From positions 43,338,001 to 43,402,000 of the forward strand of contig OZ076421.1 in the NCBI GenBank assembly GCA_964187785.1: a DNA stretch of 64,000 nucleotides, read 5' to 3'. Source of the stretch: Amphiscolops sp. MND2022. Lineage: Eukaryota. Position 1 is the stretch's first letter; the number at the start of each line of letters is the position of its first letter. The notes under the pieces were generated by a model. It made no database searches. It saw only the letters and a program-made list of their open reading frames with translations, and was not told the DNA's origin. This document shows, one piece after another, positions 1 to 29,693 of this stretch. A program made the position numbers and the translations under genes.

Positions 1-60
1 ATTCACTACAGCAATCATCGAAAACTTTCAATTCGTCACCGTCTAGCCAAAAACAATGCT

Positions 61-1330
61 ATGGCCATAGAACAAAATAACGATCCTATCCTACAGCAAC
101 TCAAACTCAAAATACTGAAGCAAGAACACTCAGAAACCATCCTGATACAAGACATCAGATACCAACACTACCTACGTCAATTGAACCGAATTTCCATTCA
201 AGATGAAATCATCACCAGGCAGTACTATGATGAACCAGGAAACATCAAATAGCAACCAAGTACTTCTACCTAAACACCCGGTGACTGAATTACTTGATTC
301 GCTTCACAGGAAAGCTGGTGGACACCCAGGCATAACCAAAATGATACAGGAAATCAGATGCAAATATTATTACCATGGAACAGCAAAACTTCCGAAAATA
401 GGTAAATGGATGCGAAACATGCATCAAAGACAAGAGAATTAGCAATGAGTTAATAACTCCTGAGCTACTCAATTTACCGGATTGGCCCTAAGGTCCAGAA
501 GACGCAAGGCAAATAGACCTTCTACCAAACCTTCCGTAGAGCGGAGGATATGAAAATATTATCACAGCTATGTACGTTTTTTCGCGTTATCTTTTTGCTT
601 ACCCAGTTACAGACGCATCAGCGACAAATACGGCTAAGGTCATTATCGACATCATGATCAAACATACCTATTTGCCAACGACTTTGATTGCCGATAAAGG
701 AACAGCCTTTACTTCAAAATTGGTGGCTGAAATTGCGCAAATATTGGGAATCCAAATCAGTTGTGTGACGACAAAACACCCGGAGACCTTAGGGAAGCTC
801 GAAAGGACTCATGCAAGTCTCAAAACAAATCTCAAGTTGGCTTCAGGGGAGTATAGACGTCAGTGGCACAAATATTTACCTCTGGCAGTCCTAAATTACA
901 ACACGTCCTACCATTTGACGTTGGGCTGTGAGCCTTTAAAGATATTCCATGGTCGAATACCCTACAATATTTTAGACCTAAAATTGGGACTCAATCCCAA
1001 TCCTACAGTTTCACCAACTACTAATTTTGCTGAAGAATTCCAACGCGGAACGCAAATTCTGATTGATACAACGAGGAAAAACATCTTTTTTGAAGTGCAA
1101 GGTATATTATGACCGAAAAGCCACTGCGGCTCCTTTGAAACAAAATGATTATTGTTTTAATTTACAACCCATAGTAGATCACCAAGGATCGAAAATCCCA
1201 TTTCGAGAATTCAGATGGATTGGTCCCTATATAATTGGAAAAGTTTTATCAAATGACAACTATATCGTCTGAAAACCTAATTCAAACAAAACGCAGAAGT
1301 TACACCGTATACGACTACGAAAATATGAAC
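61..1330 (+). pseudogene. Ty3/Gypsy integrase (copy A), frameshifted and with stops
   Basis: H2C2 zinc-binding start (LH..AGGHPGITK). Core has FSRYLFAYP, ADKG.AFTS, ERTHASLKT and YNTSYH.TLGCEP. C-terminal FRWIGPY. Broken into ORFs 61-252, 203-442, 570-1112, 1063-1272. Confidence 0.92.
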
Positions 1331-1963
1331 CGAACGCCCCACTAAGGGACGTACGACCTGAAGGCAACCTACAGCCATACGACGAAAATATTATTCTTCA
1401 AGATGACATATACATTATTACGTGGAAACGAATTTTGGCGACTTCGAATCTGGTTGCCGTCAGGAGACCTTTTTATGACCCAGCGAGCACGCCGAAATGA
1501 ATTATGACGCTGCTGACTCTACTGAGCTGCCAGATCAAATTTTTACCGACGTGTACTTTCGGTCTATCAGACGAGACGTGACTGAAGATATTCTTCCTGA
1601 TCGACTGAAGAATGAAAGTGACAACGAAACAAATGCTGATGATGCAAAATCATTAGGGGAGAGCGATACTACTGTGCCCGAAGTATAAGAAAATGGAAAT
1701 GACAACATGATTGTAGAAAATGAAAGTCCTTGAGCAGGGAAATATAACCTGCGACCTAACCCAACCCCCAACTTTACTGATGAATGCAGATACTAGCCAG
1801 ATCTATTTATTACCGGTCCAAGCATACTATTTGACCATAGGAGTAATCTGACTTTAACTAGAAATAACGAACTACTGCAACAAAGGACTATATATAAATA
1901 TTCTAAACAGAATAAATACAACACTACAGCAAAAGTTTATTAATGTACGTACACTAGGTACAA

Positions 1964-2443
1964 CTAGCCTTTACTGCTGCATTGACGCAGACGTTTCGCA
2001 GATTGGCTAACTTCGGAATCAGACAGGTGATGAGTGGGCCGAACATTCTTCCTCGAGTAACTAAGAGTACTCGGAGGCTGTTGGACCTTAGTGCACTCAG
2101 TTGCCTTCACTTTGCTGCCATTACACTGGTATTTGTCCGAAGGATCCAGTTTAGATAAAAAATCAGAACGTCCAAACTTATCCAGCCCCAACCACGGATC
2201 GTAGGTATCGATCAGTGCCGTGCGACCAAAGGTAGACTCTAAATCAAGGAAATCTGCGATCGAAGCATCAGTTGTAAATGTACTGATTGAATCCTCAACA
2301 CTGCTGAAGTATGACTGGACTGGAATGACAACGTCGACCAATTTACTTGTGAGGTCTCCTGTGTTGACAGATCCGAATTTGACAACGGGATGCGGCCTAA
2401 ACGATTCGTCCAGGCAAAGACAAGCAAGCTTGAAGCATCGCAA
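1964..2443 (-). pseudogene. C-terminal fragment of the antisense accessory gene (copy A)
   Basis: The 159-aa ORF is almost identical to the last 159 aa of ORF 8318-9394 (RCFKLACLCLDE...QCSSKG). Confidence 0.85.
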
Positions 2444-2454
2444 CAGAAGCGGTC

Positions 2455-2642
2455 AGGACTCAATAGTGGGTTAGGGACAAATGTGGACTCAAGGTCCAGT
2501 AGACTAAGCAGGAACACCGAAGGTCGAAAGCACCAAAGTGCTTGGGGAAACACCCACAAAATAATTCCAACAAATTTCAACGACCATCCTCATTCTAGAG
2601 AGAGTTCCTTAAACTCCCTGGATAGTCTTTGTGATCATACCA
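2455..2642 (+). repeat. 3'-terminal 188 bp of an element-1 LTR (truncated 5' LTR)
   Basis: Matches 15956-16143 at constant offset 13501 and is followed by a PBS. Confidence 0.88.
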
Positions 2643-2659: not shown

Positions 2660-2672
2660 CTCAATCCTTCGT

Positions 2673-6700: not shown

Positions 6701-7690
6701 ACAGGAAATCAGATGCAAATATTATTACTATGGAACAGCAAAACTTCCGAAAATAGGTAAATGAATGCGAAACATGCATCAAAGACAAGACAATTAGCAA
6801 TGAGTTAATAACTCCTGAGCTACTCAATTTACCGGATTGGCCCTCAGGTCCAGAAGACTCAAGGCAAATAGACCTTCTACCAAACCTTCCGCCGAGCGGA
6901 GGATATGAAAATATTATCACAGCTATGGACGTTTTTTCGCGTTATCTTTTTGCTTACCCAGTTACAGACGCATCAGCGACAAATACGGCTAAGGTCATTA
7001 TCGACATCATGATCAAACATACCTATTTGCCAACGACTTTGATTGCCGATAAAGGATCAGCCTTTACTTCAAAATTGGTGGCTGAAATTGCGCAAATTTT
7101 GGGAATCCAAATCAGTTGTGTGACGACAAAACACCCGGAGACCATAGGGAAGCTCGAAAGGACTCATGCAAGTCTCAAAACAAATCTCAAGATGGTTCAG
7201 GGGAGTATAGACATCAGTGGCACAAATATTTACCTCTGGCAGTCCTAAATTACAACACGTCCTACCATTTGACGTTGGGCTGTGAGCCTTTAAAGATATT
7301 CCATGGTCGAATACCCTACAATATTTTAGACCTAAAATTGGGACTCAATCCCAATCCTACAGTTTCACCAACTACTAATTTTGCTGAAGAATTCCAACGC
7401 GGAACGCAAATTCTGAATGATACAACGAGGAAAAACATCTTTTTTGAAGTGCAAGGTATATTATGACCGAAAAGCCAATGCGGCTCCTTTGAAACAAAAT
7501 GATTATTGTTTTAATTTACAACCCATAGTAGATCACCAAAGATCGAAAATCCCATTTCGAGAATTCAGATGGATTGGTCTCTATATAATTGGAAAAGTTT
7601 TATCAAATGACAACTATATCGTCTGAAAACCTAATTCAAACAAAACGCAGAAGTTACACCGTATACGACTACGAAAAGATGAACCGAACG
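3760..7690 (+). pseudogene. pol: Pol of element 1 (aspartic protease, RT with core deleted, RNase H, integrase)
   Basis: LVDTGALSSA protease motif. RT N-terminus FARHPFDMG..FKVKLTP jumps at about 5475 to FLG..RTITP, so YxDD is absent. RNase H LMTD.SF.AAGYAVLIE. Integrase at 6417-7690. Confidence 0.9.
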
Positions 7691-8317
7691 CCCCACTAAG
7701 GGACGTACGACCTGAAGGCAACCTACAGCCATACGACGAAAATATTATTCTTCAAGATGCTTATACATTATTACGTGGAAACGAATTTTGGCGACTTCGA
7801 ATCTGGTTGCCGTCAGGAGACCTATTATTGACCCAGCGAGCACGCCGAAATGAAGTATGACGCTGCTGACTCTACTGAGCTGCCAGATCAAAGTTTTACC
7901 GACGTGGACCTTCGGTCTACCAGACGAGACGTGACTGAAGATTTTCGTCCTGATCGACTGACGAATGAAAGTGACAACGAAACAAATGCTGATGATGCAA
8001 AATCTTTAAGGGAGAGCGATACTACTGTGCCCGAAGTATAAGAAAATGGAAATGACAACATGATTGTAGAAAATGAAAGTCCTTGAGCAAGGAAATATAA
8101 CCTGCGACCTAACCCAACCCCCAACTTTACTGATGAATGCAGATACTAGCCAGATCTATTTATTACCGGTCCAAGCATACTGTTTTGACCATAGGAGTCA
8201 TCTGACTTTAACCAGAAATAACGAACTACTGCAACAAAGGACTATATATAAACATTCTAAACAGAATAAAGACAACACTACAGCAAAAGTTTATTAATGT
8301 ACGTACACTAGGTACAA

Positions 8318-11300
8318 CTAGCCTTTACTGCTGCATTGACGCAGATTTTTCGCAGATTGGCTAACTTCGGAATCAGACAGGTGATGAGTGGGCCGAACAT
8401 TCTTCCTCGAGTAACTAAGAGTACTCGGAGGCTGTTGGACCTTAGTGCACTCAGTTGCTTTCACTTTGCTGCCACTACACTGGTATTTGTCCGAAGGATC
8501 CAGTTTAGATAAAAAATCAGAACGTCCAAACTTATCCAGCCCCAACCACGGATCGTAGGTATCGATCAGTGCCGTGCGACCAAAGGTAGACTCTAAATCA
8601 AGGAACTCTGCGATCGAAGCATCAGTAGTAATTGTACTGATTGAATCCTCAACACTGCTGAAGTATGACTGGACTGGAATGACAACGTCGACCAATTTAC
8701 TTGTGAGGTCTCCTGTGTTGACAGATCCGAATTTGACAACAGGATGCGGCCTAAACGGTTCGTCCAGGCAAAGACAAGCAAGCTTGAAGCATCGCAACAG
8801 AAGCGGTCGGGTCGGTAGAGAAGTCTGAACCATGAGGAATTCCACTGTGTCCGGAATAAGCAGAGTGGGTTGATCGAATTCTGCAAACTTTACACTTAAT
8901 TCGTCTACGAAACACAAGTACTCCTCCTGTGCTAAATCTCTTGATCTTGCAAAAAGTAACCTCGGAGACGGAAGGTCATAAACAATTTGCCAAAGCATTT
9001 GGTAGCCAATGAAAGGAGATTTCAAGAGTATTTTCAGGTCGAAACTCCCTGACCCTTGAGCAATTATGGTCGTAAAGTTGAAGTGACTACGTGTCTCTTT
9101 GAACAGTTGAGTGACGTAACTTCTGGCAAGACGACAGTAATCTTCTCGGGCTTTCTCAGTGACTATTTCCAGAGGTAATTTCTCGCCTTTTCGTTCATGC
9201 AACTCCAATTCTGTTTGAATTTTGCATGCCTGGTCCAATTTTGACCAAATTTTCATACAGTTAAGGAAGACAGTCACACTTAGCGCTGAGGCCGTCGCAA
9301 CATCAAGGTCCAGAGTACTTGCAATATCATCTTCAGTCGGAAGGGATGAGGGCAAGACCATTCGTTTTGCTAGATTGCGTAAGAACAAGCACAACTGCCT
9401 GAAGGCATGGAAGGCCCGGTCCCGTTGTCCACTGAGACTGAAAGAGAAGTGAGTAGTATCTAAATAGGATAAAGGTCACACAATGAAGTCTACACCGACA
9501 AGGACCTTTAGCCGAACTGCGTTGCTATATCCCTTGGAAACATACTGAAGAATTTAATTAGAATGCACGAATAACCCCAACCGACAATTACATGGGATAC
9601 GAATGGTGATAGCAGGGAAACAAGCCAACATCGTCAATAATACTCAAAGTCTCGGATGAGTTTGTAATAGAGCTCCGGTTTCAAGTGAAGAAATGGTCGT
9701 AGACTATTGACCACTCAAGGGATTAGGGTTGATTTCTAACTCCCTGCATTTGCTGTTGCTCTGTGTGGGACAGTAAAGAATCAGTAACGGACTTCCAGTG
9801 AGTTATGAGTTCTTGACACAAACTTGGGATGGGCGGTCCATCTAATTTGCCAGCTTTTATCACCTGTAGGAAGAAACTACATTCAGTGATAGCCAAAATT
9901 AAAAATACCTAAGAAATACGAACTCTAGGTCTCACCTTGACTAATGTTGAAGCAAGGAGCGTCCACTCTTGTTGAAGACTGCCGCTCAAGCTGGTCACCA
10001 GGTACTGTAACACAGAAAAGAAATCTATTCTACCAAATACACTGTAGCTATCTTTATGCGATAATTTTCGGATGGCAACCTCGTTGAACAATGTGGGTCT
10101 TTGGACCCCGTGTCTGGTGAGGGGAGATTTGTCCAGCATTTGCACCAAGTTGTAGGTCCCACCTGAACAGCAGACTGAATCGGCTTCGGTAGAGATCGCA
10201 GCTAACAGGGTGCTCACAAGTCGCAGTTCGGCTGAAGTTCGTTCGCTGGTACCCCCGGTCCGCAAGAGGTACACCCTGCACAATCTGTCCGCTTTCCAGA
10301 AGCGTAGGTGCAAGAGAAGAAACACGTTTCAAATTCGAACAAGAACTGTCCGGACGTAAGGACATCGTTGCCCAGATCAGGGATGATTTGCAGAAACAGA
10401 TGATGGAATAGTACCTGAAAGTCACTATTGGGTTAACCAAATTATATTCTCAACTAAAGATGGTACACTTAGTCTTGGGTAGCTAATTGTACTGGTAGTT
10501 CATTCTGAAGCCTAATGAATGGGACGGACAATCACATATGTGGGGACATGGACCTCAGGTAGAAGTGCGTAAGTGTGACTACTTACCGATAACTTGGTGG
10601 TACTCCAGTCAATATCGCAGAATAATGCTTGGTGGTTGACAATTGTGCCGATGTATTGCCAGAGCTTCCGCAAGACAGCATTATCTCCAGATAATGGGAG
10701 GTAATGGCCAAGGATGGAGATCTGGAGACGATTGCGATTTTGTCGTGACGCTGCTATATGATCGGCGCCAGCCATTGCTTCCTCGTAAAATAGAAATTTT
10801 TCCCCTATGTCAACTAGTTCAGAGTTGATGAAATGAGGCAATTCTAACTGCAACTGGTAATTTGTCAGAACTTTACCGTCTCTGCCTCTAACTTGGTATC
10901 GCGGGTCCTCAATTGTAAGGTACTCGTACCTTCAATGCTGGTCTTTGCGCAAAAGTCTCTAAGTGGAGTAATGGCGCAAAATCTCCTTCGGTCCTTTAGC
11001 CTTGATTGAAACATTACATTTGCAAATTTGACAGTATTTTTTTATTTGGATTCCACTTTGGGTCCATGGGGCCAGAAACAAACGTACGAGTCCATGTCAT
11101 AGACCCAAAGTATTCTTTTTTCCTTATTCAGCCAATTCGTCTTCGTGGGGTTGGTCGACCTCGGGATTTGTTAGTGGCATGTGTCCGTTTACTGGCTTTA
11201 CTTTTTTCCTTCATCGCTTCTCGTTTCAAAGTTGCTAATGTTTGAGGACTGGAACATGTAGGGGACGTAGGCCTTGTAGGTAAGTCTGTAATTCCTTCGG

Positions 11301-12359
11301 AAGAGAATCCTGGTGGGGACGGCAAGGTAATGCTGGACTGAAAGTCCTGTCGCGACTCGGCGTCAGTTGATGCCCCGTGACTACTATCACTATCTCCTGC
11401 CCCGTAGGTCATCACGGAATCGCTAAGGAAATCAGTGTCAATCCCTGGGTCCGCAGTAGATTGAGTCTAATTCCGAGGTTGTACTCGGTTGGGCTGCGTA
11501 ATTTCAGCTGACTCGCCCTTTGCACGACACTGTTTAGCATCTCGAAAGACGCACGGGCACCATCATCCGCTACGATACGTAAGATACTACTGATCTGATC
11601 CTGATTGAAGGCGACAGTTGGGTGACCAAGATACAGGCAAATGGGATTGGTTTCTATGAAACACTGCTTGATAATAGCCCTACTAGAGCCAGAAAGCGAA
11701 ACAGAACCTCTGGCTGCTGGGACGGCTGGTACACTGGATTCATTACTTGAATCATGCGGGCAAGCAATACTGGTATGTTTAGTCGGACAATAAAGAGCTT
11801 GAGCAAGGGTAGACCGTTCAATGGACCTAGTGTCAGTTCCCATACCGAAACGGGAGTCATCGTCAGTTTGAGACCCGTAGTCCATTAGACTCCTATGATC
11901 CCTTTGCTCCTCAGACTCGTTTGCATCAGACCTCGTTTGCCCAGTCTGATCAATCGGTACTTCAGAGGCAAGAATTACTACAGGTTGCTCAGCTGATGTG
12001 GTAATCCCCACTGTATTTGCACTAATGTTTGTCACCTGCGGTTGCTCAGTCTGTTCTTCGGGTCTGTCTAAGAAAATAACTCTGGGAACATCTTCGGGGA
12101 CTTGAGTTTCTGGCATTAGTTCATTCATACCAGGAGTAACAGTGAGAGGGTCACTCAGGCTTGTTTTGTTCTGGTTGGAGATTAAATCGTTGGGACTGGG
12201 TTGGGCAAGTTCAAGAGACTCAACTTTCCGACTTATGTAGGCCTCACAACTTTCGGAGTCAATAGTTGACAACAGTTCAAGTATGGACGTCTTGTCCATT
12301 GATAATTCAGTTGTTTCTGGCTCGGGGATTCCTTCTGCTGATTGTTGGGTAATCTCCAT
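8318..12359 (-). pseudogene. Antisense multi-exon accessory gene: disordered N-terminus, CxxC-H-H zinc finger, hAT-transposase-like body
   Basis: ORFs 11412-12359, 11128-11415, 10512-10853, 9909-10325, 8318-9394. My translation near 11040-10960 gives YCQICKCNVSIKAKGPKEILRHYST. GT-AG introns at 9864-9935 and 9438-9545, and a donor at 10586. Colinear homology to the element-2 gene. Confidence 0.8.
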
Positions 12360-13547: not shown

Positions 13548-14382
13548 ATGGAGAGAGCGGATAAAAATTTCCCCAAGGAGGATTTCCGCAAATTTTGTGG
13601 GTCTCGACCTAAGGTCGATCGGGCTGAGACCGTCATAATATCTGAATTTCACCCTACTAAACAGTTGACTTTTCAAATCCGCAAAAATTGCAAAGAAACT
13701 TTTCTTGGAGAAATTTCGAGAATAAATGTCCTTACAATTTTCAGTGGAGGATCTAATCAACCACTAGTCAGCCTTTCATATTTTTCATCGGATGAAGAAA
13801 TAGTAGTGGATGACTCTCCTTCTGTTACCAAAAAAGAAAGTAGCGACAGCGGCATAGTATTTATTGCCTGTTATTCTCAACAACCGCCCCAAGGCCACAA
13901 GAAGTTGCAGGACGAGGCATGACATACGACTTGCCGAAAAATGAAGATGACTTCTCCCTGTACGATGGACTCTACGGCCCATCGACTAAGGTAGACTCTG
14001 ATCCGGCTGGAGAATTAGTTGAATTAGTCCTTGGCAATAATCCCTTGATAGTACACCTAAACCTACCTACCAACAGCCAATTGCCATGTGTAGTCAGTTG
14101 GAACCCTTGCCAGATACCTCGCAGTCTCCTCCTGCCCATGAATGCGGCCAAAATTTCAACCGTTGGAATGACCCATGGGAGGAGGACGATCAATTTCATT
14201 ACCAGCCAGAGAATGCACATATTAGAGGGGTGCCCGTAAGTACTAGCGGGATTTGCGGTAACCCAAATCAAGTCAGCCAAGGCAACCATGCTGTTTGTGG
14301 TAAGAGTTTCGATACGATCAAAGAAGAAATCGTTTTCGATTACTTGGAAAAAAAACCCACATGGCTGGCGAGACATATTTAG
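13548..14382 (+). pseudogene. Sense accessory ORF(s) before the 3' LTR of element 1 (acidic, Ser-rich, unknown function)
   Basis: Overlapping ORFs 13548-13922, 13919-14239 and 14086-14382 suggest one frameshifted gene. Same position and orientation as ORF 26648-27246 in element 2. Confidence 0.5.
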
Positions 14383-14454
14383 CCCGCTGCAAAAGAAGAG
14401 AAGCGTTTCAAGCAGGTATGGCAGCTGGTTCATTTAGTCTCATCCTTGGGGGAG

Positions 14455-16143
14455 TGTCGCAGGCTGCCGCCTGTGACGGCAACAGATATCAAATTGCTCC
14501 AAATGATACGCCCCTTCCCCCTGGAATACTACCACTGTAGGTCACGTGGACCATCAGTCCTCGACTAGCACATATTTTACAAGCAATTGGAACTTATAAA
14601 CTGGCCTTAGTATAATTTTATACTGTTGCGGACCTCAAGTCCACGCGTCTAAGTACAGCCTTTAGTTAGAATAATATTCTTAGTGCAAGACGTATATGCA
14701 AAACTAGTAAGAATGTGTTCAATTATTGGTTTATTATGATATATGTTTTTTGTCATGTAAACCAGATTGCTGGAAATTTTGATTAGTAACAATAAATGTA
14801 AATTAGCAATTCAATGCAACTGTAGTGCTGATAGGAAACGCGTTAAAGTCCTGGTAACAACTAATCAACTTGGACGCGAATTCCATTACATCTTAACCAA
14901 TCAGCGTTCACTATTTCTTTATTCACTTGTGCTATAGTAGTGCTGTCTACCATTGTTGCCTTCAGCTATTTGGACCGCTGGTCCAGGCACAAATTACATG
15001 TAATATTTACTTTAACGTGAATATGATTAGATCAATATAATGTAAGGATCTACTTCAAGGCTTTATAGTTGAAAGTCGTACCGCCTAACCCCCCTGATAC
15101 CATGACCTATTATAATAATCAATTCCCTGAAGTGATGCTATTTTTAGAAACAACTATATTATTTTTAGAAACAACTATATTGACGTATTGGTGTAATTGG
15201 CCCCAAGACCCTATTAATCCTCAGAAGGTTACTAATTTTATCTCAGTTATAACGTCACAGTGACGTCAGGTCAAAGTTGCTAGCTATTTTGAAGTGATGA
15301 CATCGATAATTTTGCGTGTCATGTCCCCCAGAGTATATATACGAGGACCGCAAGTCCGAGAGGCCACAAAATCATCCTTGTACAACTATCACACGAATCA
15401 CGATTGCTGTTATTTTAGTTCAGAGACTACAAGTCTAATTGAAATATTGATACTAGTGTTGACTATTTGTTCGTTGTTCGTTCACTATTCGTTCACAAGT
15501 TCAGTTGATGATAATACTGAGTTCAAACATTATATTTTTGCTTGGCTCAATCTTGTCTCAATGCTTTCAACTAGAAAGCAAAAGGCACAGGAAAAACGTT
15601 CTAGACAATCAGACGTAATGTCTGATCTGGAAAGCATGAATATGATGTTAGGGAAATACTCACGAAATCACTCAGAGGACAAATTAATTGTAAACCTTGA
15701 GATGGACTCAAAGTCCAATGAGACTAGAGCCCACATGGCTCAGAGTTGTGAAGATTTCAGGTCACTGTTAAACACTGAAAATAGAATAGAAAATGAAATA
15801 ACTTGCGGTACTTCTAGGCTAATCAGTACAGAAGTTTCATTGCAAATATCAAGGAACTTAGACGAACTGAAAAGGGATCTAAACTCCCAAATTACGGAGT
15901 CGATCAATTCGGCAATTCACGAAACTGTATTACCTTCATTACAAAATTCATTGTCAGGACTCAATAGTGGGTTAGGGACAAATGTGGACTCAAGGGCCAG
16001 TAGACTAAGCAGGAACACCGAAGGTAGAAAGCACCAAAGTGCTTGGGGAAACACCCACAAAAAAATTCCAACAAATTTCAACGACCATCCTCATTCTAGA
16101 GAGAGTTCCTTAAACTCCCTGGATGGTCGTGGTGATCATGACA
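14455..16143 (+). repeat. 3' LTR of element 1 (about 1.69 kb)
   Basis: Starts TGTCG after the purine run GGGGGAG (14448-14454) and ends TGACA. Last 188 bp repeated at 2455-2642. First 25 nt are identical to the TSD-defined terminus of solo LTR 43403-44549. Confidence 0.85.
15561..16143 (+). CDS. gag: N-terminal ~194 codons of Gag encoded inside the LTR (orphaned in the 3' LTR)
   Basis: Open frame MLSTRKQKAQEKRSRQ... (part of ORF 15294-16148) runs to the LTR end and stops 5 nt into flanking DNA. In the 2455-2642 copy the same sequence leads into PBS and gag. Confidence 0.7.
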
Positions 16144-16506: not shown

Positions 16507-18632
16507 TGTCACAGTCCGCTCCCGGACTGGATTGCGGTTGTAGACGAGTCAGCTACGGAAGAGGCTATGGTTGTACTGCACACTTACAAAATGGTATTTT
16601 GGATTCTGCCACAATTTAGTTCGTACCACAACTCTCAAATGATTAAATAAACTGTGACTGGAAATACAAAATATCCGTCTGCCTTGCGCAAATCCTGAAT
16701 AAGAAATGAAAATAAAAAATAAAATGATCTAAAATGTTTTCACTCATTTCGCAAGACGTTTTTGCCACGTCAAAATAGTAACATCTCAGTTCTGCCAAGA
16801 AAACTCGTCAACATGACGTTGACAAGTTTATGAAAATTAATTCTGCCAAGAAAACTTGTCAACATGGCGTTGACAAGTTTATGAAAATAGGCAAAATGAA
16901 CGAATTCGCCAGATTAGTCAGGAATTTCATCGCATTGAGGCTGCTAGCTCATAGGGAACGATATTTACGGGTTACCTTAAATTGTAAAACAAATACTTTA
17001 CCAGTATGTTTCACGACTTAAAGATCAAATCTAAGATGTAATTGATACATTGAAACATTGAAACATTGAAACATTGAAACATTGAAACATTGAGTTTCAT
17101 TGGATTAATATACATGACATACATTAAAGTATTCATAAATGTATAGAAAATCCAATGTGGACACAAAATGAGCATCAGTGCTCTTCAAGTTTGTGCCCAT
17201 TCATGATAGAGTAACCCAATAGAGTTGATACATGCAGAGTAACCCAAATTCGTGTCAACTAGCCGTCTTGCACTTTTAACAATAAGTTTAGTTGTCCGCA
17301 AAGGCCGTTTCAAATGGGATTTTATAATTGCAGAGACGGAAAGTCACAGTTCATATCCATAACTAAAGTGTATTTTATACTGAAAATGTATTTTTGCATA
17401 TTTACATTTTTGTACTTGAGATTTCCAGACAATGTTTCATAATCGTGCTTGTGACCATATTTTTGTACCAGTTCATCGTTGCTGTTCATTAAAATTGCTG
17501 TATTACTGTTGCTGTTGAATAAGTGCTGATGTACAAGTAACAATTTTTTATAATAGTCAACTTGTCGCAATTGTCGCGTCAATCTAAAGTTATCGTGTGT
17601 GTACTAATATGTTTTGTTGATAATCATAAACGTTAAATTTGCCTTAATCTAGTATTTCACTCATTAACCTCTTCAAAATATCTTCCTAGCATCGCCCAAA
17701 TAATCGTAATTTGGAAATGAGTCATCGCGTTTGATCAAGCTGAATTTCAAAATCAGGTATTAGTTGATCACGCAGCGTCATCTCAGCGTCAATTTTCCGC
17801 GAACCAAAGCAGTAAAACAGGTAATCATTTCCGGTTTGACAGACTGAAGTAATATCTACTTCCTGCTTGGGAGGAAGCAAAAGGACGCCGGGATGAAATA
17901 ATATGCTCGTGATAGATGACTAATAGGGAAAACTATTGCCGTGTCTCAAAATTTGACGAAATGTCGATGCAAATTTGGGATCCTAATAATTTTTTCACCG
18001 TAAAAACAGAAAATGACTAATTGTTCGAAAGAAGTTGGGAATATGTACGTGATCAAATGATGCTAGGAGGGTATATATATGATGTGTAACCTTATTCAAG
18101 GGACTCAGTCCTTTTCAAGCGCTATAATTCAGTTGTTTCAACTTGTTTTGCCCAAACCTCATTCTCAACTCTGTCAAAACCAGAAGACAAATTTGAATTC
18201 TTTGAGAAACAAGCTTTCCCATCAATATGTCAACAACAAGAAGTCAAAAGAGAAGAAACACTCAGCGAGAGACTGAAGACAACGTAAGTGAAGGTTTCAT
18301 TTCACCAATAAATATAGAGAGCTCTCGTTCTTCGAACCAGGATACCGACGTGGCAGGCCCGTCGAGACCAAAATCTCCTAGGGTAGAAAATTGCTCCTTG
18401 GAGAGTTTGAGAGCTTCTTTAAAAGAGGAGATTACGTCTGAGATCAAAAATCTTCTTCTAGAATCCCAAAGAGAAATGTTGAGGCTTCTAAGATCTGAAA
18501 CAGGAAAAAATGTAAGAAATAGCACTGTTGATGAAACGGAAAATGAAACAAGGAGCTTCCATACTCCAACGAGAAAAGTACGAATCAACTCTACCGAAAA
18601 TAACGACCCTGACACGAACGTAAATCGTAACA
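16507..18632 (+). repeat. 5' LTR of element 2
   Basis: Long direct repeat of 27299-29693 apart from indels, TG...CA termini, TATA-like TATATATA near 18074. Confidence 0.95.
17041..17093. repeat. (ATTGAAAC)n microsatellite, about 6 units, in the 5' LTR only
   Basis: Directly visible tandem 8-mer; absent from the 3' LTR. Confidence 0.9.
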
Positions 18633-19685
18633 TGGTGACAGGAGCTCTAACCGACTCCACAAATCACCCGAAAAGACCAAAAATAAGGTCTCAGAGCCAA
18701 CCAGCGCCAAAAGAGCGTCCCGCAGTAGCTAGAACACTGTTTGGAGCAGAAAGAAACGACAACCCCGCGTTACCTATGCCAAAAGCACTAACGGCCTCAC
18801 TCCCTACATTTGACGGGAAAACCGAAAAATTCGAACTTTTCGAGGATCTTTTCCGCAACAACATCAAAATGTATCCGCACCTCACGGAACTCCAAAAAAT
18901 CAACTATTTTCACTCCTTGCTACGAGGAGACGCCCTACAAGCGTTTTGCAATATAGAAGATGCGAAAAAAGATTTGCTAGAAGAAATCATGACGATTTTT
19001 AAACGCCGTTTTGGCGAATATTTACCAATGGCAAAAGCCAGACAAGAATGGGACACACTCCCCAACACAAACACCAACACAAACCTACGTGAACTTTTGG
19101 ACGTCCTCCAAAAAATTGCAAAGGAAGCCTTCGGTTCGGAAGCCCAACAATTCATTGACAAGGCTATATACGCCAAGATGCCTGATCACGTCAAAAAGAT
19201 ACTTAACAGGGCATATCTTGAAGACAAGCCGTAGAGTGACATTGTACTCCACCTTGAAAGGGAGATGCGGCTCAATGGCCTCGGTGTACCAGAGGATGTC
19301 AACTTAGTACCGCTAAATGATATAGAGTCAGCCGAAACAAAGCCCGAGACCAAACCAAACAAAAATACCACCCAAAATACAACACAAAACCATAAAAAAG
19401 GATACTGCTTGTACTGCAATAAGTTTGGCCATTTCAAAGCAGAGTGTCGAAAACTGAGAAGGGATGAATGGCAACAGACAAAGAAGAACAACGGCCAAAC
19501 CAAAAATAACGCAGGCACCACACATAAATGTGATACATGCGGAAAACCTCACAAAACGGAAGATTGATGGAATGGAGCCAACTTGGCCAACAACCCGAGA
19601 CCTAAACGACATTTCCAATGAGAAGAACACTGATACTTCCACCCAGCAATCGACAACTAATTTCGGAGACGAATCAAAAAACTAG
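18227..19685 (+). pseudogene. gag: Gag of element 2, initiating inside the LTR
   Basis: ORF 18227-19234 starts 406 nt before the LTR end and crosses the PBS in frame (...NRN|MVTG...). Knuckles CLYCNKFGHFKAEC and CDTCGKPHKTED. Internal stop at 19234 plus frameshifts. Confidence 0.9.
18633..18644 (+). promoter_or_regulatory. Primer binding site (tRNA-Leu type)
   Basis: TGGTGACAGGAG immediately after the LTR-terminal CA. Confidence 0.8.
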
Positions 19686-22204
19686 TTACGCCGCTCCTGC
19701 GTTTCGGGGAAACCGTAGACGCGAGGGCGTATCCACCAAAAGACCCCCTCACTACTTACACAGATAACTCAACAATAGAGTGTGACGGTACTCCAACAGG
19801 GGACTGGTTGAGACAACAAGCACTCGCAGCAAAAAAAAAGACCAATACGACAACCAGAAAGAGAGGCAATCTACACTCAAGACAAAGACTACAGAGACGA
19901 CCATACACGTCATGCCAACCCCATCATCCAGCTCCCTTGCTCCACCAAAGAACAAACAGCTAAAACCCAAATAGACCTAAATGAAAATGCCACCGGCGAC
20001 CACTCATCGCCACAAACGAACGAAGAAGATACTCACGGTCCCACCAGGTTACCTATCTTACACGACGATCTCCCCACCTCCCTTAATTCGATCAAAGAGT
20101 ACATAACTGAAAAAGATGGGGATACCTACATACTTCTGCACTCGACCATAGTCCTCAAGAACAGAAGACGAATGCTGTACTTGCCACTCGAGTTCGGCGA
20201 AACAACCATGGACGGCCTCGTTGACTCAAGATTGAACGTGCAAACGCCCAACTCGAACAACCTATCGCCACTGCTGTTATTCAATTCAATATCGGAACAA
20301 ATACGTTCACCGACACCTTTGTCATCCTATCAAAGACGTCATTCCCCATAATTGGAGTGAATTTTATGAGAAACCACCAAGCCGTGATAGATACGGCCAA
20401 CGGGAGCATCACCTTCCCACATGTCGAAATGACATTAGTCATGACAGACGAAAAGAAAAACTGTAACCCCAAACCTCTCCAAATCATGGCCGAAGGAAAT
20501 CAAACGCTGCTACCACAACAAACAACAACAGTAAAAGCAATAGTCATAACCACCAATGCAACCGGCATCACAGGTGCAGTACAACCGCTACCACAGTTTG
20601 ATGAAACAGCCACCATCATCGTTGCACCAGCTTTGGCACAGCTCATAACAAACGAATCAACCTCCGAATAGCCAACTTGACAGATTTCTCTCACACCATA
20701 AAAAACCATACCAAACTGGCAGAATTGCAAATTTTTAGGCCAAAGGACACCAATTAGATACGACTCATAGACGTCGCAACACTGACCACCCTACAAGACC
20801 CAGATGACACGCACATGTATGTAAATGAGCTCATGAAATCCACAAATAACGAACAAAACGACAAAAACATCTGGTTCCCAACACCCGAAAACCCGGGAAA
20901 CGAAGATGAACACACGCCAATACAACGGCGAAAATTAAAAGAAATCAGAGAACTCATGAAGAAAGAACAACTCGACCCCACCAAAGATCCATAATCAAGG
21001 AAAAAGAGTTCCTCGATATGTTCAAATGGGAAGGATCGCAGATTGAGGGAAACGACGAAAAACAGCTTGAGCAAACGATAGTTGAATACAACTACATTTT
21101 TGCGCGTCACAGACTCAACATCGGCATCAACAATAGCTTCAAAGTGAAACTGACGCCAAAAGACGAACGCCCCATATACACACAAAGCCTACCAGTACCA
21201 ATCAACTTGAAAGAAGACCTAACAGTCGAACTAGCGCTCATGCACAGGTATGGCATAATCACGACATTACCATTTTCAAAATATGCCAGCCCGATTTTCG
21301 CACAACGTAAATCAAATGGTAAGCTACGTCTACTTGTCGACCTGCGAAAAATCAACGCACTGATATCTGACGGCTACATCAACAACAATAATCCAGTCAG
21401 CACCCTGTCAGACGCAGCTCAACACCTAGCTGGGCAAAAAATGTTCTGTCAAATAGATTGCTCTCAAGCATATCACTGCCTGCAAATGGTGGATCAAAGA
21501 TCCATCGAAATGCTAGCGTTAAACTTTGCAAGCAGAACCTTCGCATACAAACGACTGACACAAGGACTGAGCAGAGCTTTGTCAGCATTTTCAAGCTTCA
21601 TGAGAGAATATTTGGATAAAGTAATCAAAACTGACCAGTGCGCGCAATATGTGGATGATATTGGAATAGATGCCAACTCCGTGACGCAACTGATACGAAA
21701 CATTCGAGCTGTCTTTGAATGCATCAGACAAGCAGGGCTTGAACCATCCAATGACAAGTGCCATTTTGGAGTGACTGAGGACGAATTCCTTGGAAGAACG
21801 ATCACCCCACAAGGAATTGCCCCCCAAGACCACAAAATCCAGAAATTCAGAAATCAAAGAAGCAAGTACAAAGATACATAGGCTTTGTCAACTACGACCG
21901 CAACTATATCCCGCGGTTGTCAGAAAAGTTACTCGGTTTCTACGAGCTACTGAAAGCAGACAAACAAATCAAGGTCACAGAGGAATTGCTAGATAACTAC
22001 AAAGCGATCAACGCAGCACTAGCGGAGGCATGTGGATTGGCTCTCAAACAACCTATCACAGGACGACTATTTGTCCTAATGACGGATGCAAGTTTTCGCG
22101 CCTCGGGATATCCGCTAATGATCGAAGAAGAGAATGACAAAAAACTCAATTCCAAAAAAATACTTTTGCTCCTGTAGCATTTGGACTGAAGATGTCAATT
22201 TATT
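19686..22204 (+). pseudogene. pol: Pol of element 2: degenerate protease, RT, truncated RNase H; integrase absent
   Basis: RT motifs SKYASPIF, LRLLVDLRKIN, FCQIDCSQAYH, QGLS, QYVDDIG. RNase H LMTDASFRASGY. Sequence leaves pol just after KMSIY at about 22204. Confidence 0.92.
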
Positions 22205-22291: not shown

Positions 22292-25200
22292 TCAAACCAC
22301 ATGAATAATAAAATACACTAGTCTTTTGACGACGAGGCTCCACTTTTCTTCACTGACTTGGTAGACCCTTTTTTTCTTCGACTCAGCATCGACAGCTTCC
22401 CTTGCAGATCTTTTTCGACCAAGCAACGACCCCAGACTACTGTACTTCTGCCCTTTACTAGGACAACCGGAACTCGTTCCACTGTCACCCTGAGCTGCAA
22501 CGACTGCACCAGCAACAGAGGACTCGCCACTTTCTGAATAAGTCACAGTAGTCAAATCAGAATGACCAGCAGACTGAGCACGACTACCATGTATGTTTGC
22601 GACACGAAGTCGGTGGTACGACTCGTCCTTTTTCTGCGCCACATAAGCCTCGAACAATGACGTATAACGACTCACGAAGCCACTCTGCCCACCACTGCAA
22701 ATCCTGCTCAATGGATCAAACTCGGTACAGGACATAAAAGAATACGAGTTGACGATAGCATCGCGAATACATTCCATAGTGTGCTTGGTAAAAATGATTT
22801 CTGTGTGTAATTTGGCGACAGCACCCAGCTCTGAACACCACGGATACAAGATGATACTACAAGCTTTGGCACAGTGCAACCTGACAGATCAATATCAACG
22901 ACAGGAGAATTACGTTGAGGTTTTACAACAACCAGACAGCACAACTTGAATACTCGACATAAGTTTTTTCGAGCTAAATAACTGTAATCCGATAACGGAA
23001 ACGTCCCCAAATCGGGGATCTCGTCAACATGTTGATTGCTAGTATCATGTCGGACACGATCATCAACAACAAAAGATGAAAATTCCTCAATCGCAGCACC
23101 AGCCTCAACGTCAGTCACCACTTTGCATCGTTTCAGTAATGCAACCAAACAATTGAACAGTCCAAAGATATATTCATCACCTCCTCCAAGCAATATTTCA
23201 GGACAAAAACAATAGATATACTGCATGAAATCCGAGGAAGCAGGGTATTGCATCAGAACAATATCCACAAACCGATCAATAAAATCGGGACACTGACGAT
23301 GGAACTCTCGTGCCTCACCACCTCTGATGCCCCACAAGACACTGCCAAACTCATAATTCATCAGCAAATCATCACACGACAACTTCTCCATGTAGGCAAC
23401 TTTGGAAACGTCCATGTAATCTTCCCACGAGTTCAAAGGGGGCAGGGATGCACTTTTACGGCTACGAGACAATAATCCATATACGAATTGACTCAGTTCC
23501 ATATAAAAATGGAAGCCATAATCAGATCGTCCAGCACATCGCTTCTTGAAGGGAACGGCATCTGCAACACAACAAGAAGCAAATACAACACTGTCCCGCA
23601 ACTGTAACGACGAGTAAATGAGAAAGATGACGATGCTATAAAGACAACAGCACAACAAATACACGACAATATAAAATAACACGAGACTTACGGAGATCAA
23701 GAATGTGACCAAGAAGGCCAAGTCGTATTACAATCGTGTTGTCGCTGCTCACCAACCAGTCCAGTCCTCGCATCTGCAACAAATCACAACCAAATTAAAT
23801 ATAACCATATAAGAATTCACGTCGCCTCGCCCAACCCGATTCCATGGCACAACCATAACCTTACACAACTCCTTATTTTAGGTAAAGGACATCTCACCTT
23901 ATCAACCTCACATCTAGAATGTCCAGGAGCCGTGTATCGCACAAACTCTCGTACAATTGTCCAACTGGCCACGAGATCAGCCACCACCTGTCGCAGATCT
24001 GCAAACGTCACGCGACCAGAGAGCACACAGCGCTGAAGGGTACGAGCCCCGTCCATCCACGATTCCTGAAGGGCACCCCGCAACCGCAACATCAGAAAGT
24101 CAATCATCAATGACGTATCCAGCCTACCGAAGACCTCTTGCTCAGCCTGACGATATTCTCGTAGAAAATCATCTTCAGTAAACTCTCGACAATAAAAAAA
24201 TTGGCGTCCATCGACACGGTTGTCTTTCAAGACACGCAGAAGTGACGTACTACACCCTGGCATGGCAGAAGCAATTGGCAAGACGACACACTGTCCACAA
24301 CACGAGAGATGCCAGCCAACTCCGCAACAGGCACACGCTAACCAGCGGACTCCACCCGAACACACACAGAAAAAAGAGAATCGTCGTCCCAAGTGTGGAC
24401 AAAGCACTCATGAGTTGTAGCATCACTGACGAAGAAGACGCTGTACTCACGGAAGGATGCGATCCGAGAAACAAGCAATCGCAACACTCGCGGGAACAAA
24501 GCCTGGCAGATCAGGGACTAAAACAGAATAAAACACCATAAACACCATAAGTGACCTTCCCTAGCCCACCCAACCACCGATACACGCCCACTTACTGCAA
24601 GTCATAAATACACAAAACAACTCACCAAGGTTTCAGCACGATCCCACTTCAGGCTGAACAGAGGCTCCTCGGGACCAAGAGTAGCACGAAAACACCCCCA
24701 CAACTTCCTCAGTAGGGTGTAACTCCCTCCACAACGGAACAGTTCTAACACGCTGTTAATCATCGTCATGAGTGGAACAGAAGAGTCCACACGAGTGCAT
24801 GAAGGAAGAAGATCCTCCGGGAAGCTAAAACCCTCCGCCAGACCCTTACTTGGACGACTCATGTAATCAGACACTTGGGCCTCACTCAGTTCGATAGGAT
24901 CCATGAGCCGATTGAATATGGGAAGATCATGTTGCACCCGATACGTCACATCCAACTGCCAATGACGTTTCCCAAAGAAGTGACGCGAGAACTCCGATGC
25001 ACCATGAGATTCCATCGACACATCCCGATGACAGATTTTGCAGAAAAACAATTTGTCGGACCCCGTATTCGAACCACTCGCAAACAGTTGATAGATAGGG
25101 TTATCACCAACCATATCGCGACGGAGTCGATTCCGGGAACTGTTAACCCCTCTGCGCTGATGTTGTGGCGCCACAACTCCTTCCAAACTGGTCTCCACTC

Positions 25201-26181
25201 GGGACACAAGCTCTTGAAACCCTACAAACATCAAACACCACTTACCGAATAAAGAGTAACAACACTCAGACATCAATCCCTGGCCATTGAACACCCCCCT
25301 TCTCTTCAACTACTCTACAGACAGGAAATGAAACAACAAAATACTAACGAGTAACGAGGGGCTCCATCGTCCGATGTTCCAACTCAGTGGCCAATTTCTC
25401 TCCAAGCCTCACGGCTTGACGGGGTGTACATGGCAATCCGGACGTGTCAACTGGGACACTCCCACTGCTCTCAAGCTCGAATCGCAAAGTACGCGAGGCT
25501 GTTTTTGAGGCTGTTCTCTCTTCATGGCCCCGAGAGCGCAAACACCTCGATGAACTTGGTGGAGCGCAACCAGAGCGCAACATTGAACCTACACACAAAA
25601 CAACCAATTTCCACAAAGGCTCCACACCGGAAACGTCGAATCAACAAGACATAAAACTTCACAAAATATGAAAACATAGGAAAAAGACACTGAACGCATA
25701 CACTAAAATCGGCTCTAACCTCGCCCAAGCTCTGCACTAGTGGGCAACACGTTGGAGCCCACGTTAAATTCAGACAGGAAAGACGGAAAACATGGTGAAG
25801 TCGTTTTCTGCCCATCAACAACAACAGCTGCTGCAGCAGACAACGGAACGACCTCCACTGCAGAGAGATCTGCGGGCAAGGAGATTCCAGAAACAACTGC
25901 TGGCACCACAAGAACGGAACCATGTAAATCAGACCCTGAAACAACATTCCCAAATCGACGTGTCAGAAAACCTAAGCTGTGAAAATGCGAAACAGAAAAG
26001 GCCTATTTGACAGTAGTAATATTCACAAAAGCTTAATGGATTGGGGAACGACAAACTTACCAGCAATAGGATGTACAGTCGAAGGGTTAGCATCACTCTC
26101 CCGAACGTCTGCTTCTGAGAAGAGGAATTGAGTCTCGTGACCGCTCTGGAAGCCAGATTCAACACGGCGCGGAGACGACAT
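22292..26181 (-). pseudogene. Antisense multi-exon accessory gene of element 2 (zinc finger, hAT-transposase-like)
   Basis: ORFs 24602-25309 (FFCKICHRDVSMESHGASEFSRHFFGKRH), 23817-24407, 22708-23721, 22292-22879. GT-AG introns at 25977-26060, about 24518-24625, 23774-23897 and 23602-23691. Candidate ATG at 26181. Confidence 0.8.
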
Positions 26182-26531: not shown

Positions 26532-26647
26532 CAGAATAGAGGGATTTTTCCCAATATTCTCCTTAATCCTAAGTAATCCGAAAAATCATTGTGGAAAGAA
26601 CAGAGTTAAAGTGCAGCTACAAAAAACCTCCAATTCATCACAACCAG

Positions 26648-27246
26648 ATGGCTAATCTTAAAGATATCTATGAGCTAATAGACATCTCATCAGAAAGCGA
26701 GAACGATGAAATTTTGGAAAGGGCCTCTACACCGCTTCCTAAAGATACGTTCCCAAACATCAGGGGGTAATCCTAGAAACATCACACTCCTCCATCGAAG
26801 CTAACGCAGATTTAGAAGAGGATCTCAACTCATCTTTAGACTCTATAGACATGGATTGCAAACGACTCAAACTGGATAAGAGCGTCGAGACGGTAGAATC
26901 AGGAGAACATCCAAACTCTCCCGGGAAATATGAGGATGGGGAGATAATTGAGAGCCCAGAAAGCCCTGACGAATGCACCATCAACACAACGAACTCTGGA
27001 GTCTTCATAGTAGAGAGCCCAAAGCAAACTAGCTCTCAATCAGTAGACAGCGCGATCATAACAGAATACCTGGAACAAGTTGCAAAAGCAGACGCAGATT
27101 CGTACTTCGTCACTCCTCCGGGCCCACTGAAGAGAATAAATACTATCTCTGCAAGTCTACTAAATGATCTAGAAGAAAGAAGGGAAGTATGCGTACCCCC
27201 AGAGAAGCCCGAGGTGAAAAACAGCCACGGCCGTTACCCTAGTTAA
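26648..27246 (+). pseudogene. Sense acidic accessory ORF of about 200 codons with one frameshift, unknown function
   Basis: MANLKDIYELIDISSESENDEILE... from 26648 shifts frame near 26765 into the frame of ORF 26851-27246. D/E/S-rich; ends 52 nt before the 3' LTR. Confidence 0.55.
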
Positions 27247-27298: not shown

Positions 27299-29693
27299 TG
27301 TCACAGTCCGCTCCCGGACTGGATTGCGGTTGTAGACGAGTCGGCTACGGACGAGGCCATGGGTGTACTGCAAAACTCACAAAAGGTATTTTGGATTCTA
27401 AACTCTCATAAGATTAAATAAAATGTGACTGGAAATACAAATTATCTGTCTGCCTTGCGCAAATCCTGAATAAGAAATGAAAATAAGAAATAAAATGATC
27501 TAAAATGTTTTCACTCATTTCGCAAGACGTTTTTGCCACGTCAAAATAGTAACATTCACCACCTGAAAACTAAATTAAGACACGTTTTAAAACAAAGAGA
27601 ACATTAGCCAATCTAAATGAAAACATATCCTAAATCATCTCCGAAAGGAACATCAATCAGATCGAAAAAAATATCAGATGGCACGTCAGAGAAACTAAGC
27701 CTGTTCTAAGAAAGGCAGCTTTATTACTCTTTGAACAGCAATTAGTGTGGTGTAGGACGTCAATATTGCGCTGAGCAAACAATACGGCGGAAGAAATAAG
27801 AATACATGTATATTTGTCGTCAGTAAGTCGCAGACAAGTTTGAAGGTATATCAATTGACGTCACTGCCTCGCCTATGCGTACCAGAAAATCATTCCAATT
27901 ATCCGCCTATGTTAATAATTTTACTAGAAATCATTCCAATTTACCGCCATTGTGACGTCACCACACCGGCAGCTAGCTAGAAAATCATTCTAAAATACTC
28001 GTCAGCATTACATCAAACTAGTCAAAATGTCAGTTCTGCCAAGAAAACTCGTCAACATGACGTTGTCAAGTTTATGAAAATTAATTCTGCCAAGAAAACT
28101 TGTCAACATGGCGTTGACCAGTTTATGAAAATAGGCAAAATGAACGAATTCGCCAGATTAGTCAAGAATTTCATCGCATTTAGGCTGCTAGCTCATAGGG
28201 AGCCATATTTACGGGTTACCTTAAATTGTAAAACAAATACTTTACTAGTATGTTTCACGACTTAAAGATCAAATCTAAGATGTAGTTGATACATGCAGAG
28301 TAACCCAAATTCGTGTCAACTAGCCGTCCTGCACTTTTAACAATAAGTTTAGTTCTCCGCAAAGGCCGTTTCGAATGGGATTTTATAATTGCAGAGACGG
28401 AAAGTCACAGTTCATATCCATAACTAAAGTGTATTTTATACTGAAAATGTATTTTTGCATATTTACATTTTTGTACTTGATATTTCCAGACAATGTTTCA
28501 TAATCGTGCTTGTGAGCATATTTTTGTACCAGTTCATCGTTGCTGTTCATTAAAATTGCTGTATTACTGTTGCTGTTGAATAAGTGCTGATGTACAAGTA
28601 ACAATTTTTTATAATAGTCAACTTGTCGCAATTGTCGCGTCAATCTAAAGTTATCGTGTGTGTACTAATATGTTTTGTTGATAATCATAAACGTTAAATT
28701 TGCCTTAATCTAGTATTTCACTCATTAACCTCTTCAAAATATCTTCCTAGCATCGCCCAAATAATCGTAATTTGGAAATGAGTCATCGCGTTTGATCAAG
28801 CTGAATTTCAAAATCAGGTGTTAGTTGATCACGCAGCGTCATCTCAGCGTCAATTTTCCGCGAACCAAAGCAGTAAAACAGGTAATCATTTCCGGTTTGA
28901 CAGACTGAAGTAATATCTACTTCCTGCTTGGGAGGAAGCAAAAGGACGCCGGGATGAAATAATATGCTCGTGATAGATGACTAATAGGGAAAACTATTGC
29001 CGTGTCTCAAAATTTGACGATATGTCGATGCAAATTTGGGATCTTAATAATTTTTTCACCGTAAAAACAGGAAATGACTAATTGTTCGAAAGAAGTTGGG
29101 AATATGTACGTGATCAAATGATGCTAGGAGGGTATATATATGATGTGTAACCTTATTCAAGGGACTCAGTCCTTTTCAAGAGCTATAATTCAGTTGTTTC
29201 AACTTGTTTTGCCCAAACCTCATTCTCAACTCTGTCAAAACCAGAAGACAAATTTGAATTCTTTGAGAAACAAGCTTTCCCATCAATATGTCAACAACAA
29301 GAAGTCAAAAGAGAAGAAACACTCAGCGAGAGGCTGAAGACAACGTAAGTGAAGGTTTCATTTCACCAATAAATATAGAGAGCTCTCGTTCTTCGAACCA
29401 GGATACCGACGTGGCAGGCCCGTCGAGACCAAAATCTCCTAGGGTAGTAAATTGCTCCTTGGAGAGTTTGAGAGCTTCTTTAAAAGAGGAGATTACGTCT
29501 GAGATCAAAAACCTTCTTCTAGAATCCCAAAGAGAAATGTTGAAGCTTCTAAGATCTGAAACAGGAGAAAATGTAAGAAATAGCACAGTAGATGAAACGG
29601 AAAATGAAACAAGGCGCTTCCATACTCCGACGAAAATAGTACGAATCAACTCTACTCAAAATAACGACCCTGACACGAACGTAAATCGTAACA
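27299..29693 (+). repeat. 3' LTR of element 2, including an orphan Gag N-terminus (29288-29693)
   Basis: Direct repeat of the 5' LTR. ORF 29288-29755 equals the Gag N-terminus up to ...NVNRN and then reads into flanking DNA. Confidence 0.95.

Follow-up and report, generated by a model that had tools for sequence, protein, structure and literature searches.

An intron-containing antisense gene of Gypsy retrotransposons in Amphiscolops, probably derived from a hAT-like transposase

A 64,000-nucleotide stretch of the Amphiscolops sp. MND2022 genome (assembly GCA_964187785.1, contig OZ076421.1, positions 43,338,001 to 43,402,000; hereafter, the window) carries two decayed Gypsy elements and one fragment in its first 30 kb. 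Each of the two, here called element 1 and element 2, encodes a large zinc-finger accessory gene on its minus strand, downstream of pol and upstream of the 3' long terminal repeat (LTR). We find that the two genes are homologous, interrupted by introns and maintained across a large family of relatives. The predicted fold of the protein points to a probable origin in a hAT-like transposase: there appears to have been one ancient capture of such a gene, followed by loss of its catalytic residues. That a captured, catalytically dead transposase has been kept as a DNA-binding helper, probably as a regulator of its own LTR, is a longer chain of steps, to which as a whole we give slightly less than an even chance.

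Homology of the two antisense genes

An earlier note on this DNA, made from the sequence alone, quoted short peptides that the two elements seemed to share. These peptides indeed lie on the minus strand of both elements and in the same order, and tblastx links five into one chain (summed E, 1e-11). The DNA of the two gene regions is not alignable (best blastn E, 0.3), as the note had also observed. Pairwise blastp between the elements is weak by itself (E 9e-7, 1e-6 and 0.05). Copies of the gene fall into two clades, with element 1 in clade 1 and element 2 in clade 2, and profiles built from five to eight copies of a single clade detect, for three of three exons and in both directions, the minus-strand gene of the other window element, at 12-44 bits. 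The best scores of codon-shuffled controls were 0.6-3.8 bits, and 0 of 60 controls reached the observed score in each of the six tests.

The view that both elements share one accessory gene stands with regard to homology, antisense orientation and position after pol. However, introns split the peptides, and stops and frameshifts disrupt the two window copies. Likewise, a position after pol and before the 3' LTR holds for both elements, but pol of element 2 is truncated, and a second open reading frame (ORF), in sense orientation, also precedes the 3' LTR. The gene of element 2 had been taken to end at 22292; reading by homology ends it near 22318.

Exons and introns

In element 1, exon 1 (10587..12359, minus strand) encodes a long, acidic N-terminal region rich in serine, threonine and proline, then a basic stretch, a zinc finger of the form CxxC-x16-H-x5-H, and a helical domain. 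Frameshifts near 11460 and 11050, together with stops at 11130, 10961 and 10934, interrupt it, and its start is uncertain, lying either at 12359 or at a conserved upstream methionine near 12450. In relatives, exon 1 is a single open frame of 580-800 amino acids. Intron 1 (10415..10586, minus strand) has the form GT...AG, with a position and phase common to clade 2. Exon 2 (9936..10414, minus strand), which has a frameshift near 10328, encodes an RNase H-like core and the start of a helical insertion. Two small exons follow as a fused unit (9648..9863, minus strand) with internal stops and a frameshift, and the next splice donor is broken. The intron of about 70 nucleotides that separates these small exons in relatives is exactly gone in element 1, at 9729/9728. 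The last exon (8318..9459, minus strand) is an open frame for a helical insertion-like domain, with conserved EE[YF] and R..L..F.L.CL helices, an additional C-terminal region and a basic, serine-rich tail.

The gene of element 2, also on the minus strand, begins with decayed low-complexity N-terminal exons (25350..26181), of which the first spans 26181-26061 and the second starts from 25935; the later boundaries are inferred. Next come an open exon for the zinc finger and helical domain (24626..25221), which is 93-95% identical to its ten closest relatives; an RNase H-like exon (23898..24517) with a frameshift near 24255 and a stop at 24340; a small exon (23692..23773, AG...GT) whose homologue in clade 1 is the second of the two small exons; and the last exon (22318..23561), with frameshifts near 22780 and 22380.

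Splice signals are kept where intron sequence diverges, and three intron positions are common to both clades. The zinc-finger exon is followed by GT in all 12 copies compared. AG precedes the RNase H-like exon in both window copies and at 13 of 14 loci, and all 13 copies compared have an AG at the same place ahead of the last exon. The intron absent from element 1 begins with GT in all 15 of the other clade 1 rows (13 distinct loci), and the protein P0252 exactly lacks a different predicted intron. Because two introns are exactly absent from natural sequences, the predicted splice junctions are supported. Recombination with cDNA made from a spliced antisense mRNA would be expected to leave such exact intron losses in single lineages. 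One copy (G000:C3:32222027; L055:3-1367) reads as a single open frame from exon 1 through its intron and the RNase H-like exon.

Abundance, selection and linkage to Gypsy

Searches of the genome (1.07 Gb, 1929 contigs) with three exons returned 6523, 6225 and 6773 first-look candidates, which are not copy numbers; of these, 111, 137 and 150, respectively, were scored. Most of the matches listed are free of stops, and their identity ranges from 100% down to about 50%. Among natural copies, pN is 0.025-0.29 and pS is 0.47-0.99 in 23 of 23 exon pairs. The ratio of nonsynonymous to synonymous substitution rates (dN/dS), a check that the earlier note had proposed, is 0.04-0.14 in the seven pairs with computable dS, and so not near 1; the other 16 pairs are saturated. 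On the opposite strand, the sole frame that looks constrained is the mirror frame, which shares third positions. From these sequence comparisons, we judge that the accessory gene is under strong purifying selection. Explanations based on chance and on a shadow frame were considered, and are ruled out by the profile and shuffle tests together with these selection results.

All 15 copies that were compared together with their flanks, hand-picked from match lists to span identity bands, have the gene tail-to-tail with integrase. The proposed comparison of accessory-gene and pol trees was made with an integrase segment and the middle exon from 11 loci, leaving out both window elements and L034, which the integrase pattern did not match. 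The two trees have 5 of 8 splits in common, and the distances are correlated (Spearman 0.865; 0 of 5000 permutations), although the deep division of the two clades accounts for much of this correlation. A scan of the flanks with 10-mers for terminal inverted repeats (TIRs) around the gene gave one match in element 1 and none in element 2, and the repeat scan of the window found no inverted repeats of at least 60 nucleotides bounding the gene. No TIRs flank the gene in the window, so it was not inserted independently into each element.

Purifying selection, shared introns, an unvarying place and orientation (15 of 15 flanked copies) and co-divergence with integrase bear out the proposal of an old, vertically inherited accessory gene. 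"Ancient" is a relative term here, because the homologues that were placed come from this genome or from assemblies that may be of the same species. Protein searches found 1101 representatives at E 0.001 or better, and 153 and 166 in two further searches; relatives are all unnamed among the matches listed, and the 120 best of the 153 and of the 166 are all from ENA assemblies. P0253, the sole relative compared, is 100% identical to G000. No long (649-2000 amino acids) relative of the last exon was found among 5425 candidates.

Predicted fold and probable origin

Before any structure prediction, we took the zinc finger and the C-terminal helices to recall hAT transposases. The middle exon was then modeled on relative L034 with 131 sequences (predicted local distance difference test score, pLDDT, 76.5). 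In this model, a helix precedes an RNase H-like core predicted to run as three strands, helix, strand and helix, and further helices follow. Hermes chains, from a hAT transposase, occupy all of ranks 1-10 in a Foldseek search of the PDB (best E 1.2e-3, probability 1.00, 212 columns), and the first row that is not Hermes has an E of 0.04. Hermes also ranks first among 48,161 chains in an unbiased VIA search (Z 6.1, root-mean-square deviation (rmsd) 11.8, 174 residues aligned), with model residues 1-198 placed on Hermes 152-345. A search of a separate viral library puts a hAT protein of Pandoravirus at rank 2 (E 4.5e-3), with the top query TM-score among the 50 rows listed. The last exon, modeled with 16 sequences (pLDDT 61.7), falls on Hermes 243-565 at rank 10 (Z 4.5, 147 aligned), a match that by itself is noise. 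The protein has a zinc finger, then a helical domain, an RNase H core and a helical insertion, an order that fits a transposase. The zinc ligands are more than 90% conserved in 130 sequences, and an upstream tryptophan and phenylalanine are conserved in clade 1; in Pfam, the zinc-finger members have a weak C2H2 match (PF25420) in 8 of 13, below the cut-off, and no zf-BED match. On these models, a hAT-like origin of the accessory gene is probable.

Several results weigh against such an origin. In Pfam, no hAT family, nor any other family that would be informative, matches any of 137 last-exon, 131 middle-exon or 13 zinc-finger members, and PF05699, the hAT C-terminal region, is found in 0 of the 137. 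PDB searches with sequence profiles gave no transposase (best E 0.04), profile-profile comparison with eight or nine host hAT sequences was not significant, and a host hAT C-terminal profile reaches at most 4 bits on last-exon members, with scattered matches. Among structures, no Foldseek match reaches E 0.001, and the Z of 6.1, at an rmsd of 11.8, does not stand apart from those of unrelated folds of the RNase H type, such as glucokinase (Z 5.8). The ISCth4 transposase reaches Z 5.9 at an rmsd of 3.2 over 97 residues, covering only the core; ISCth4 and unrelated RNase H-like folds come within 1 Z of Hermes over about half its aligned length. For the last exon, the Hermes match lies within the noise of helical bundles, a third of the model has a pLDDT under 50, and a Foldseek search of the PDB gave nothing under E 1 and no transposase among the 50 rows listed.

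An alternative is a different origin of the accessory gene, such as from another DDE superfamily (Mutator/IS256, P, Kolobok or Dada), from a host gene domesticated from a transposase, or from an unrelated protein with an RNase H fold. The Z of ISCth4 and the absence of a sequence link to hAT favor an origin of this kind, and the several introns could point to a host-gene intermediate; to our knowledge, few DDE superfamilies with a helical insertion have solved structures. However, Hermes alone aligns over the whole exon (174 residues versus 97 for ISCth4), a second hAT protein stands near the top in the separate viral library, and the N-terminal finger and C-terminal helices follow the hAT order by eye. 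We therefore regard a different origin as rather unlikely, and a hAT-like origin as the better account.

A local profile-profile match between the last exon and host hAT sequences beat 20 of 20 column shuffles and was rejected, as it fell in the wrong region with an E of 0.2. The ESM Atlas gave leads, all under 0.9, for the last exon only, and no usable match for the middle exon. A search of the genome for DUF4371 found 0 of 7 candidates, and its control was also without a match. A homodimer prediction for the helical domain after the finger, run without an alignment, gave no answer (score 0.00). The genome also contains ordinary hAT transposons (L044-L053), with open frames of 600-700 amino acids and intact motifs.

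Catalytic residues

The available text of PMC6027215 gives Hermes D180, D248, R318, W319 and E572 as essential. The corresponding columns were inferred from the ranges of the VIA alignment and from motif spacing relative to Hermes. At the inferred D180 column, there is no aspartate among the six commonest residues (glutamate in 58 and valine in 31 of 116), nor at the inferred D248 column (serine in 74 and glutamine in 31 of 128). The inferred E572 region has hydrophobic residues or proline, and its column 219 is without glutamate among the six commonest residues. The inferred histidine column of the CxxH motif is phenylalanine in 126 of 131 sequences, and no RW motif was seen at the inferred place in sequences inspected by eye, without a tally. 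Thus, on the model, D-D-E catalysis looks lost.

Two points tell against this conclusion. Clade 1 often keeps a glutamate at the end of strand 1, where clade 2 does not, and the catalytic positions were placed by the ends of aligned ranges and by the spacing of motifs rather than read off a residue alignment printed by a program. The glutamate at and near the first catalytic position is also what could be said for an active second recombinase, or for a nested autonomous DNA transposon. Against both, the second and third acidic positions are not conserved, neither window element has inverted repeats at the gene ends, and the gene is tail-to-tail with integrase in every flanked copy; we consider them very improbable. 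Because neither the catalytic triad, nor the CxxH motif, nor TIRs were found, the gene is not classed as an active hAT transposase or transposon.

Possible role in the element

A role can be proposed that begins with the capture of a hAT-like transposase gene by a Gypsy ancestor, once, in antisense orientation downstream of pol. An antisense gene retains its introns when the sense genome is reverse transcribed. Because the gene is antisense, its introns would escape removal from the genomic RNA, and the gene would be copied along with the element. Transcription would start from a promoter near the 3' LTR, and the conserved splice sites suggest that the antisense transcript is spliced. In the course of this history, the D-D-E residues would have been lost, and the zinc finger, the helical domain resembling DNA-binding domains and the scaffold retained. 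The product would be a nuclear, sequence-specific DNA-binding factor for the LTR of its own family or for nearby DNA, and would activate or de-silence gag-pol transcription in trans. Given a hAT-like origin, we consider transcription, DNA binding and a regulatory role together to have somewhat better than an even chance.

Features of the protein sequence, namely the finger, the basic stretch, the lysine-rich tails and the long, acidic, disordered N-terminus, fit a nuclear DNA-binding regulator. Between clades, the accessory exon is 14-23% identical, compared with 55-62% for integrase and 79-85% for reverse transcriptase (RT). Such divergence is as expected if the factor tracks the DNA of its own clade, and fast divergence under constraint fits co-evolution with clade-specific LTR targets. 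According to the available text of a preprint, transposases and their catalytically dead derivatives are sequence-specific activators of cognate elements (bioRxiv 10.64898/2026.08.24.746577).

From the same origin, the dead transposase might instead be a cofactor of integration or replication that binds LTR ends or chromatin and tethers the integrase complex through hAT end-pairing. Retention of the whole transposase scaffold, beyond its DNA-binding part, and co-divergence with integrase are consistent with a cofactor. Nevertheless, the gene diverges far faster than integrase (the 14-23% versus 55-62% given above), and a long, acidic, disordered N-terminus would be more typical of activators; a cofactor role therefore seems unlikely. 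The fast evolution under constraint would also fit conflict, in which the protein is dominant-negative toward host hAT transposases, or is a decoy or inhibitor of host silencing, without binding its own DNA. Real hAT transposons with long open frames do occur in the genome. However, the protein has no detectable similarity to the sampled host hATs, so mixed oligomers seem unlikely, and its zinc-finger residues are strongly conserved; an antagonist of this kind is quite improbable. A DNA-binding regulator of the element itself remains the role that we favor.

Relation to known systems

The accessory protein resembles Hermes and other hAT transposases (PDB 4D1Q, 8EDG and 2BW3) in its predicted RNase H core followed by a helical insertion, colinear with Hermes 152-345, in its N-terminal C2H2 finger, and in the weak alignment of the last-exon model with Hermes 243-565. 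It differs in that the essential residues are not conserved at the inferred positions and the gene is without TIRs. Also, the Gypsy-borne protein has a long acidic N-terminus, an extra C-terminal region and an LTR element as carrier.

In arrangement, the gene is like the antisense ORFs of plant Retand/Tat elements (TRP28, PF04195; Grande, RIRE2), which also lie between pol and the 3' LTR throughout a lineage. In the available text of PMC11963269, plants are the main known source of antisense extra ORFs in LTR retrotransposons, with the origin and role of such ORFs open; those of Retand are proposed to encode a DNA-binding regulator, and TRP28 is confined to flowering plants, its role and origin being unknown. 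In contrast, the Gypsy gene described here has multiple exons and a full transposase-like architecture, and a Pfam search of accessory-gene members gave no match to PF04195.

Spm TnpA, MUG and FAR1 are activators encoded by transposons or derived from transposases, often with lost catalytic residues, as set out in the available text of bioRxiv 10.64898/2026.08.24.746577. These serve DNA transposons or the host, and the words "retrotransposon", "LTR" and "Gypsy" each have 0 occurrences in that text. VANC is a functional analogue, and by analogy the accessory gene may act in a manner like that of TnpA or VANC. DAYSLEEPER/SLEEPER and ZBED are host-domesticated hAT genes with roles other than transposition; they are single host loci, whereas the owner here is a high-copy retrotransposon.

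Among animal Gypsy elements, the giant Burro elements of planarians likewise have added domains, one of them dUTPase-like, but these are part of the sense polyprotein, and "antisense" does not occur in the available text of PMC6431247, from which this description is taken. The available text of PMC9911081 mentions neither Gypsy nor antisense, and that of PMC13547354 describes different LTR accessory proteins. In the literature searched, which consisted of titles and abstracts and did not extend to Repbase, Dfam, subscription journals or supplements, there was no description of a hAT-derived gene in an LTR element; transposable-element databases and supplements may already hold such an element.

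Carrier elements and other features of the window

After gag, Pfam identifies RVT_1, RT_RNaseH and rve in Ty3/Gypsy order. Element 1 has a remnant of its 5' LTR at 2452-2642, which matches its 3' LTR at 97%. From 2643 to 8146 (plus strand), a primer-binding-site-like motif is followed by decayed gag and pol, the latter with a protease region, a dUTPase-like domain, RT, RNase H and integrase. The dUTPase-like domain lies at 4569-5159, between the protease region and RT (PF00692, E 7e-4, below the cut-off). The 3' LTR (14540..16143, plus strand) has an approximate 5' boundary and ends with CA at 16143; it holds the 5' part of gag (about 190 codons; 15562-16143). A truncated second copy of family 1 occupies 1..2457, with integrase and, at 1964-2457, the 3' part of the antisense last exon; it is 97.5% identical to 6357-8811.

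Element 2 has LTRs of the form TG...CA at 16507..18632 and 27299..29693 (plus strand), which are 98.4% identical over 1410 nucleotides. The 5' LTR is preceded by GCAAG and followed by TGGTGACAGG, and the 3' LTR is followed by GTAAG, so that GCAAG and GTAAG form a 5-bp target duplication with one mismatch. The start of gag (about 140 codons) lies inside these LTRs, and its frame continues through the LTR end and the primer site. The internal region, 18633..22185 (plus strand), encodes gag, a protease region, RT and the start of RNase H; a deletion has removed most of RNase H and all of integrase, and the accessory gene abuts the truncated pol at about 22185. A motif starting with TGG directly follows the 5' LTR in both elements, with one base altered in element 1. 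There is no obvious purine run at 27262-27298, where a polypurine tract was sought before the 3' LTR of element 2.

In both clades, the second ORF, in sense orientation, lies between the 5' end of the antisense gene and the 3' LTR, head-to-head with that gene. In element 1, it is acidic and decayed (13608..14540, plus strand) and is 35-62% identical to an open frame of 311 amino acids in L054; in element 2, it is also acidic (26645..27246, plus strand) and has a frameshift near 26740. Examples in relatives are L054:7160-8092, L034:8639-8998 and L035:2-406. The ORF begins with a hydrophobic stretch and then serine and acidic residues, which we take to recall a SUMO-interacting motif, and it matches no Pfam family.

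Elsewhere in the window, Pfam marks RNase H and integrase at 61196-63613 (plus strand), in a fragment of a third LTR element that is unrelated to the others. Decayed frames at 32448-34655 (minus strand) are reminiscent, by a motif, of Polinton-type DNA polymerase B; Pfam gave no match for the two frames scanned. An exact tandem duplication of 486 nucleotides adjoins an assembly gap (30669-31639) and is possibly an artefact, a 13-nucleotide tandem array lies at about 30470-30670, and an inverted-repeat element is duplicated at 36984-37239 and 46973-48069.

Implications

In its fullest form, our proposal is that this Gypsy lineage has domesticated a complete hAT transposase as a dead, spliced antisense activator or anti-silencer specific to its family, which is paired head-to-head with the acidic ORF and has aided the spread to thousands of copies and the splitting of subfamilies. 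We offer this form tentatively, as it falls short of an even chance. It predicts that the antisense mRNA is spliced, that the protein is nuclear and that its binding to LTRs is clade-specific. For annotation, there is a warning that thousands of multi-exon "genes" without Pfam matches in a genome of this kind may be retrotransposon cargo. If true, the proposal would trace an antisense ORF to a definite source, a domesticated DNA transposase, in a lineage that is high in copy number and has many intact members, and would extend the domestication of transposases from hosts to other transposons.

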